Below are positions 48,204-48,907 of a DNA stretch of 64,000 nt, piece by piece. The DNA lies in contig JAJXVT010000001.1 of NCBI GenBank assembly GCA_021781995.1, positions 70,171-134,170 of the forward strand. Direction: 5' to 3'. Positions within the stretch are counted from its first letter, which is position 1, and each line of letters starts with the position of its first letter. Made by a program: the position numbers and the translations under genes. A model generated the notes under the pieces. That model saw only the letters and a program-made list of their open reading frames with translations. It had not been told where the DNA came from and made no database searches. Source of the stretch: a bacterium. Lineage in GTDB: Bacteria > Chlamydiota > Chlamydiia > Chlamydiales > SM23-39.

Positions 48204-48907
48204 GTCAAAATCCTTGAGATTTGATGAGCGAGAGCCTGTGGTTCTTCTAAATGAATCGCATGCCCGGCGTTGGGAATGATCGTATGGGGATGATTTTTAT
48301 AATGTGCGCGATAAGCATGGTCCAATTCTCCGACGATTAAATGGGTATTTTTGGGTAAATAGCATGAATAGTCATCTTGCTTGCCAAGACTATGGTATTG
48401 AAGCATGTGAATCAATATTTCTGGAGTGTGTGTTTGGCGCATCGTTAAAACATCTCTCTTTGATCGCAGTGAATGGAAGAGCTGTTGATCGTACCAGTGA
48501 GTTATAAATGAGTCAATGGGGGTATTTTGAATTTGCTTCATCAACGCGCAGTCTTTCAGCCATCTTTGCTTGCGTTTTTCTACTGGAAGTCCCAGATGTG
48601 CGGAAATCAAAATGAGTGTCTTGATTTTTTGCGGGTTTTTTATTGCATAATCTAAAGCAATACGCCCTCCCATCGAATAGCCGATGAGATGAATCGGTTC
48701 TTCGATCGCATTTAAATCAAACGGGTATTCCAAGGCTATGGAGGCAGTTGCAAAATTAAGCAGCTCTGCCGCTTTCGCAACCGGCCTCAAAATCATCGAT
48801 TTTTCTGGGCGCTCAAGTTTTGCAACTACCTCTATGGATTGGCAGATATTTTTTCGCACCTCATTCCAATCGCTTGCGCGCCCAAGAAAACCGTGCAGAA
48901 AAATCAT
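48194..48907 (-). CDS. menH: SHCHC synthase-type alpha/beta hydrolase (MenH) carrying an in-frame repeat-element insertion
   Basis: [14 protein letters not shown] (HG oxyanion motif), GYSMGG nucleophile elbow and C-terminal NAGHAIHLE. The likely start is the Met at 48907 (the track start at 48970 would overlap the LRR gene). Codons from 48741-48832 derive from element copy B. Confidence 0.7.
48741..48832. mobile_element. ~92-bp palindromic MITE-like element (copy B) inside the menH reading frame, inverted relative to copy A
   Basis: The reverse complement matches copy A at 51/60 over the first 60 nt, including a 19-nt identical run gatgattttgaggccggtt, and at 15/16 at the far terminus. Flanked by TATG on both sides (48737-40, 48833-36). 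92+4 = 96 nt = 32 codons. Confidence 0.7.

Follow-up and report, generated by a model that had tools for sequence, protein, structure and literature searches.

A probable MITE family in Chlamydiae and its decayed in-frame copy within menH

The menH gene of the window, the whole 64-kb stretch of DNA that was analysed, carries a 92-bp segment that is very probably the decayed copy of a MITE, a non-autonomous DNA transposon, and the reading frame of the gene runs through this segment. The host gene encodes an SHCHC synthase of the alpha/beta hydrolase type and is located at 48194..48970 on the minus strand when its longest ORF, with a TTG start at 48970, is taken, and it stays one open frame, as an earlier sequence-only reading of this DNA had claimed.

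The menH copy and its relatives in the window

The element in menH (copy B, 48741..48832, minus strand) is an internally deleted MITE whose arms match the family profile with nhmmer E-values of 5e-15 and 1e-7; it has inverted GAGG...CCTC ends and keeps both 17-nt terminal inverted repeats, GAGGTAGTTGCAAAACT / AATTTTGCAACTGCCTC on the menH strand. The copy occupies a TATG site on the coding strand, upstream of the nucleophile elbow, and the resulting target-site duplication, of the 4-bp kind observed family-wide, occupies 48737..48740 on the left and 48833..48836 on the right. The 92 bp of copy B plus one TATG of 4 bp give 96 nt, which adds 32 stop-free codons to menH; the ends, the flanks and the codon count were all described correctly in the sequence-only reading. 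The junctions display a 7-nt direct repeat, CTATGGA (48736-48742 and 48832-48838), as three flanking target bases match the first two bases and the last base of the element. The family statistics show that the true duplication at menH is 4 bp, not 7; the extra 3 bases may be coincidental, with a probability of 1 in 64, or may reflect microhomology during integration. Relative to a full-length 182-bp sister of the window copies, recovered from a sibling ENA sample (L226), copy B consists of positions 1-77 (72/77 identical) joined straight to positions 168-182, representing a clean internal deletion of exactly 90 nt, or 30 codons.

Copy A (26779..26889, plus strand) is a 111-bp stem-only derivative that forms a near-perfect hairpin (DNA fold of -42.5 kcal/mol, z = -11.0), comprises positions 1-54 of the same sister joined to positions 126-182, with the central 71 nt missing, and has an AAAA duplication on either side (26775-26778 and 26890-26893). 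The reverse complement of copy B matches copy A at 51/60 positions, including the identical 19-mer GATGATTTTGAGGCCGGTT, just as first reported, and the match at the other terminus, originally given as 15/16, is actually 14/16. This similarity inside the window is beyond chance (BLASTN E = 3.9e-10), and the 16-mer terminus, with up to 3 mismatches allowed, is matched 7 times in the window where 0.58 matches would be expected. The statement that the element is open in one frame in each orientation did not hold, copy B having two open frames on the plus strand and one on the minus strand and copy A two on the plus strand and none on the minus strand. Copy A resides in the 178-nt spacer between the divergent pknD and trpS genes, both identified by their products PknD and TrpS. 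Together with its AAAA duplication it occupies 119 of the 178 nt between the two start codons, the copy itself ending 7 nt and the duplication 3 nt ahead of the trpS ATG, and, from this position between divergent start codons, copy A must overlap the trpS promoter and ribosome-binding region.

Smaller traces of the family were also observed, such as copy C (20266..20299, plus strand), a 34-bp intergenic remnant of the two termini only (GAGGTAG joined to CTGGGCGCTCAAGTTTTACAACTGCCTT; E = 1.9e-5 against copy B) with ATA/ATA flanks; and a degenerate, intergenic solo arm of the GAGCC sub-type (GAGCCGATTGCCAAACTCATTTACTCGTTAAAATCGCCCTTTTG) at 2969..3012 on the plus strand (nhmmer E = 3.8e-6). The window copies match the family arm profile with nhmmer E-values of 1e-7 to 3e-15. 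A perfect 46-nt palindrome at 29782..29827 (23-bp stem; -19.7 kcal/mol, z = -10.2), situated 23 nt past the stop codon of a 561-residue gene (29850..31535, minus strand), has outer 12 nt (ATAGAGGTAGTT) that match the family terminus and equal the MITE terminus plus ATA. Its match to copy B is confined to 12 nt (E = 0.29), and it may represent an extreme deletion derivative or an unrelated terminator-like hairpin. Altogether, the 64 kb contain 4 family copies or remnants and 1 uncertain palindrome.

Copies, termini and hairpin of the dispersed family

A first scan of one genome per species with the 16-mer GAGGYAGTTGYAAAAC was too loose, most of its 120 matches being due to chance, and these were filtered by BLAST and nhmmer, leaving true copies in chlamydial MAGs. 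The MAGs with true copies comprise Rhabdochlamydiaceae (including Ca. Acheromyda pituitae), Parachlamydiales, Chlamydiia and some that are labelled Verrucomicrobia. Metagenomes were scanned with a specific pattern, GTTGCAAAACT, 10-14 free bases and then AAAATYGATGATTTT, for which the chance expectation is about zero, and 101 loci were matched. An nhmmer profile of the arms, run over 222 sources, detected 100 two-armed elements and 45 solo arms, and many contigs within single IMG datasets carry copies, as do at least 8 MAGs labelled as chlamydial. The proposal that the segment is a dispersed element, and not a local duplication of menH sequence, is borne out by these copies and by the duplications that flank them, since an exact direct repeat of at least 4 bp, of variable and mostly A+T-rich sequence, flanks 53 of the 97 scorable copies against about 0.4 by chance.

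The length of the two-armed copies is narrowly defined, with 44/100 measuring exactly 182 bp and 69/100 falling between 178 and 187 bp, and minor classes of 70-85 bp and 92-165 bp were also observed. The 17-nt termini, GAG[G/C]C[A/G]GTTGCAAAACT / AGTTTTGCAA[C/T]TG[C/G]CTC, are kept in both arms of 58 aligned copies and are likewise found in copies A and B of the window; in the metagenome copies, the scan pattern itself dictated the left arm, whose invariance is therefore uninformative, and it left the right arm and the centre unconstrained. Three of the four characters used to recognise a MITE were thereby found, namely terminal inverted repeats; a 4-bp target duplication; and small, transposase-free, dispersed copies of uniform size. 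The defined length, the target duplication and the termini point to a MITE whose mobilising enzyme cuts its target with a 4-bp stagger, and the duplication and the inverted ends would suit a DDE-type enzyme acting in trans. As regards an autonomous partner, no terminus pairs 0.45-4 kb apart with a matching duplication were found across the 222 sources (~1.6 Mb), nor any transposase-like ORF inward of the solo arms or beside terminus-only matches in the same sources, and a plasmid collection scanned for the family gave no match.

Folding of the 182-nt consensus (-67.6 kcal/mol, z = -11.7) gives a long stem, of about 45-50 base pairs in the family, below a branched centre that holds GC-rich hairpins. 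RNAalifold, applied to the 58 aligned copies of 178-187 bp from L005...L221 (alignment A4), recovered 48 pairs, 25 of which show compensatory double changes. Paired cells reach 94.2%, compared with 80.5% in column shuffles and 38-51% with partners slid by 1-3 columns, and the covariation score is 0.379, compared with 0.145 in column shuffles and about 0.05 with slid partners. On the AAAATCGATGATTTT-bearing strand, G.T wobbles outnumber A.C mismatches by 127 to 38 outside the scan pattern, and by 48 to 16 when 24 representatives are counted. This excess hints that the hairpin is constrained on one strand, with an RNA or single-stranded DNA stage, and the asymmetry serves as a lead only, because the copies are related by descent.

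Genic insertions and the MenH protein

The canonical copy and its duplication amount to 182 + 4 = 186 nt, equivalent to 62 codons, a frame neutrality to be read against the one-in-three prior that a length is a multiple of 3. Copies within long open frames account for 14/100, menH included, those in TsaD, LigD and LptF/G being verified, and the genic copies use both orientations and all three phases. Further in-frame insertions, for which the sequence-only reading had proposed a search, were found in tsaD, ligD, lptF/G, the aroD-aroE fusion and a PAP2 gene. TsaD (L138) contains a clean 61-residue insert that is absent in 7 orthologues of 71-86% identity; a DNA-level empty-site alignment for tsaD was uninformative, and the protein alignment was used in its place. 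In LigD (L193), about 62 additional residues separate two conserved blocks whose spacing is 8 residues in PDB 6nhz, the best-matching solved LigD-type ATP-dependent ligase domain, and a single Pfam ligase-domain match spans the insert. The Pfam match of LptF/G (L187) is broken in two, the Pfam domain of the PAP2 phosphatase is split by an internal insert, the AroD-AroE fusion is interrupted in the same way, and internal inserts also occur in four proteins with no Pfam match, while the element supplies N- or C-terminal extensions to an SDR, DapB and a HlyD-like protein. In a groundwater Chlamydiia MAG (L006, 5105-6310), a 401-residue ORF that gave no Pfam match carries the left arm in frame (EAVAKLPAPEKSMIL...) and a right arm so decayed as to be hardly recognisable, suggesting that an old insertion into the gene is being absorbed by its product.

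Each copy has on average 2.16 open frames of 6, compared with 1.45 in dinucleotide shuffles, a modest enrichment of about 1.5-fold in an element of 55% G+C, and stop-codon avoidance was therefore downgraded as strong evidence of adaptation. A word-indexed protein search with the insert-peptide profile returned short ORFs only, and an exhaustive search was needed for long proteins. Run against 1.84 billion representative proteins (E <=0.001), the exhaustive search yielded 190 clusters, mostly ORFs of 50-130 residues called over spacer copies, and about 40 representative ORFs begin at the internal ATG of the element (CGATGATTTT). Public databases accordingly contain at least 190 clusters of proteins, predicted spuriously or from a wrong start, that go back to this repeat, among them a truncated menH call of 200 residues, and the family is worth masking in the annotation of chlamydial MAGs.

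The MenH protein of the window has TIGR03695 (menH) as its best family match (E = 1.4e-46), at a score of 158.9 bits that lies below the NCBIfam curated cut-off of 208.55, and the solved MenH structures of E. coli, V. cholerae and S. aureus are its top fold and sequence matches. The alpha/beta-hydrolase fold, the Ser-Asp-His triad, the HG motif and the men-gene neighbourhood are all present, with menB and a UbiA-type prenyltransferase gene (menA) adjoining, both intact. In an alignment with 20 homologues, the protein retains 24/24 invariant columns, including the nucleophile Ser99, Asp217 and His237, and the HGFLG motif is retained. The true start is probably the ATG at 48907 (MIFLHGFLG...), which gives a MenH of 237 residues, as the homologues begin at this motif and residues 1-17 of the longest ORF are unstructured in the AlphaFold model, with pLDDT below 50. 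The ORF that begins at TTG 48970 runs across the stop codon (48934) of the gene upstream.

Among 5.8 billion proteins searched, 393 MenH homologues were retrieved, of which the 20 best and most diverse were aligned, and the 32 residues of the insert, whose absence from orthologues the sequence-only reading had proposed to test, are missing in all 20. Once they are taken out, the protein lines up residue by residue with chlamydial MenH of the short form, for example P0003, which agrees with the earlier claim that removal of the segment restores an in-frame MenH. The closest insert-free homologue is only about 50% identical, and none exceeds about 52% among the homologues found. Only P0001 is identical in sequence; it is encoded on an ENA contig of 2.9 kb that matches the window at 100% identity, and its gene call begins at an ATG within the element. 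Even minus the insert, the MenH of the window is of a short form in which the stretch from beta-4 to the nucleophile elbow contains neither the LPGHG loop nor helix alpha-B, and the insert-free homologues P0003 and P0085 share this form.

In the AlphaFold model, the mean pLDDT is 87.9 and most 10-residue blocks of the core reach at least 90, whereas the insert is of low confidence (58-81). The insert is predicted at the surface between helix alpha-A and strand beta-4, as an extension of alpha-A, a loop and a return helix (residues 62-75) that is followed at once by beta-4; a structural model of this kind had been proposed with the original observation, and it favours the surface placement considered there. 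In the established alpha/beta hydrolase topology, the junction from alpha-A to beta-4 and the triad loops lie on opposite sides of the sheet, and by analogy the insert would sit on the sheet face away from the catalytic triad. A HMMER alignment of the insert to beta-4/alpha-B of E. coli MenH was rejected as forced, since the insert-free short-form chlamydial MenH aligns cleanly. The element-derived helix (residues 62-75) stands directly ahead of beta-4 in a MenH without alpha-B (alignment A1, columns 88-180).

A MITE mobilised in trans would have entered menH at TATG and duplicated these 4 bp, and the reading frame of menH survives because the frame used by the insert is stop-free. The present 92-bp copy may have arisen by loss of an internal 90 nt (30 codons) after insertion, or a pre-shortened copy may have been inserted. 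The insert would then be transcribed and translated as a predicted 32-residue surface helix-loop-helix in a MenH that would still be active.

It was also considered that the insertion inactivated menH and that the open frame is that of a young or lucky pseudogene, with MenH dispensable or replaced by the spontaneous reaction. The insert is foreign DNA found in no homologue aligned, its modelled confidence is low, the protein scores below the curated cut-off and the LPGHG/alpha-B segment is missing, all of which speak for this reading. Against this, the frame outlasted both the insertion and the 90-nt internal deletion, every invariant residue with the whole triad is kept, the flanking menB and menA are intact, and the short form also occurs in the insert-free P0003 and P0085. 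The element is moreover tolerated in tsaD and lptF/G, genes that are usually essential in bacteria, and inactivation of menH is regarded as unlikely. Translation might alternatively begin at the ATG inside the element (MILRPV...), giving a MenH of 200 residues that would lack the HG oxyanion motif and leaving the upstream part as a separate or untranslated fragment, which is how P0001 was called on the identical ENA contig and where the approximately 40 representative public ORFs of family members also begin. Gene callers favour ATG, however, and the 25-46 codons upstream are in frame and encode beta-3 with the HG motif MIFLHGFLG and helix alpha-A, alignable with every homologue, so that the shorter product would be deprived of the oxyanion hole and of one strand of the core; the internal start is accordingly the least probable of the readings weighed.

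Hardly more probable is the reading of the repeat as a structured RNA or DNA motif that the host encodes (for instance a terminator, an RNase III site or a RAYT-maintained REP/REPIN) rather than a cut-and-paste transposon, with its presence in menH incidental. The conserved secondary structure with strong covariation, the excess of G.T wobbles (127 vs 38 A.C mismatches) on one strand, which would denote a single-stranded functional form, and the placement of copy A in a promoter-proximal spacer are consistent with such a motif, but the variable 4-bp target duplications at 53/97 copies and the location of the sites in unrelated genes and spacers, in both orientations, argue for mobility. REP/REPIN and IS200/605-type elements make no 4-bp target duplications, and the REPIN/RAYT and IS200/605-type readings were rejected on this ground. 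Rfam contained no family match either, the sub-threshold matches to generic hairpins (microRNA) being rejected, and mobility and a structural requirement can coexist in a MITE such as the one preferred here.

Comparison with known systems

The sequence-only reading had likened the insert to the Rickettsia palindromic elements (RPE), reportedly described by Ogata et al. 2000, 2002 (cited via PMC3733652), and a resemblance in mode of action is supported by the in-frame insertions in several conserved genes; the likeness would be functional, and membership in RPE is not claimed. Both are short palindromic repeats of an obligate intracellular bacterium, both occur in spacers and in frame in functional-looking genes, both are open in the frame being read, and the chlamydial insert is, in addition, predicted at the protein surface. 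In-frame insertion of a segment absent from orthologues, one of the characters by which the RPE type is judged, was observed for menH, tsaD, ligD, lptF/G, aroD-aroE and the PAP2 gene. The chlamydial family differs from RPE in belonging to another phylum, in its 17-nt terminal inverted repeats and 4-bp duplication, which are those of a classical MITE, and in its one sharp length (182 bp) and covarying branched hairpin.

The Correia/NEMIS elements of Neisseria and the enterobacterial ERIC are MITEs of 100-200 bp with terminal inverted repeats that form long hairpins when transcribed, and the chlamydial family shares with them the size class, the terminal inverted repeats and the long hairpins. 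Correia elements make a TA duplication, are nearly all intergenic and carry IHF sites and promoters, and, to our knowledge, frame-preserving genic insertions are not typical of them. QMITE1 and QMITE2 of Coxiella burnetii have direct repeats of 2-3 nt or 7-11 nt and sizes of 300-400 bp or 150-190 bp, and are tied to sRNAs and promoters (PMC5896051). As MITEs they share with the chlamydial family an intracellular bacterial host and direct repeats that vary, and, like it, they often overlap ORFs, by in-frame insertion or by supplying C-terminal residues (PMC5896051), whereas the 4-bp duplication and the internal insertions in conserved enzymes set the chlamydial family apart. REPINs, which are mobilised by RAYT, have no target duplication and bear a conserved GTAG or CGTC tag (PMC3733652); they resemble the chlamydial family as palindromic dispersed repeats under structural constraint and differ from it by its target duplications and by a terminus tetranucleotide in which GTAG is as often GCAG or CCAG. 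MITECca01 of a Cardinium endosymbiont, about 240 bp in length, is found mostly in spacers or other mobile elements and rarely inactivates genes (PMC9769881). It is, like the chlamydial family, a newly described and widespread MITE of arthropod- or amoeba-associated intracellular bacteria, for which, unlike the chlamydial family, tolerated in-frame insertions have not been reported (PMC9769881).

Searches of the open-access literature yielded no description of a MITE or palindromic-repeat family from Chlamydiae and no paper with the terminus sequence, in line with the original remark that such an element seemed undescribed for this phylum, and the main study of chlamydial mobile DNA covers transposases only. 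We tentatively propose that environmental Chlamydiae could carry a phylum-wide, gene-adapted MITE, which would be frame-neutral (186 nt), mostly stop-free and endowed with a hairpin selected on one strand through a single-stranded stage, and which might have acted repeatedly as a donor of modules of up to 62 residues (32 left in menH) to TsaD, LigD, LptF/G, AroDE and MenH. If true, this would be an independent, convergent counterpart of RPE and a source of new protein segments. Palindromic repeats lying in frame in genes have so far been a curiosity tied mainly to Rickettsia, and a second, unrelated obligate intracellular lineage would suggest that mobile DNA generally gives rise to them in gene-dense genomes of small populations. 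The chlamydial case is clearer than that of RPE, since the termini, the 4-bp duplication and the conserved structure are all defined, and the insert-free tsaD orthologues (71-86% amino-acid identity), the availability of full-length and deleted copies and the uniform length make it a tractable system.

MAGs of the PVC group looked numerous among the 120 loose-scan matches, an impression that carries no statistics. Palindromic elements of 113-131 bp with the same 16-nt terminus (GAGGYAGTTGCAAAAC) and unrelated interiors were observed outside Chlamydiae, in a Kiritimatiellota MAG (L029), a member of Schekmanbacteria (L061), a MAG labelled Bathyarchaeota (L088) and a gammaproteobacterial MAG (L011), with the 4-bp duplications CCCC, TAAC and TAAA in three of these cases, and terminus-only matches were seen in L004, L030, L045, L056 and L089. 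The GAGGYAGTTGCAAAAC terminus may be the mark of one widespread IS family that spawned several MITE families.
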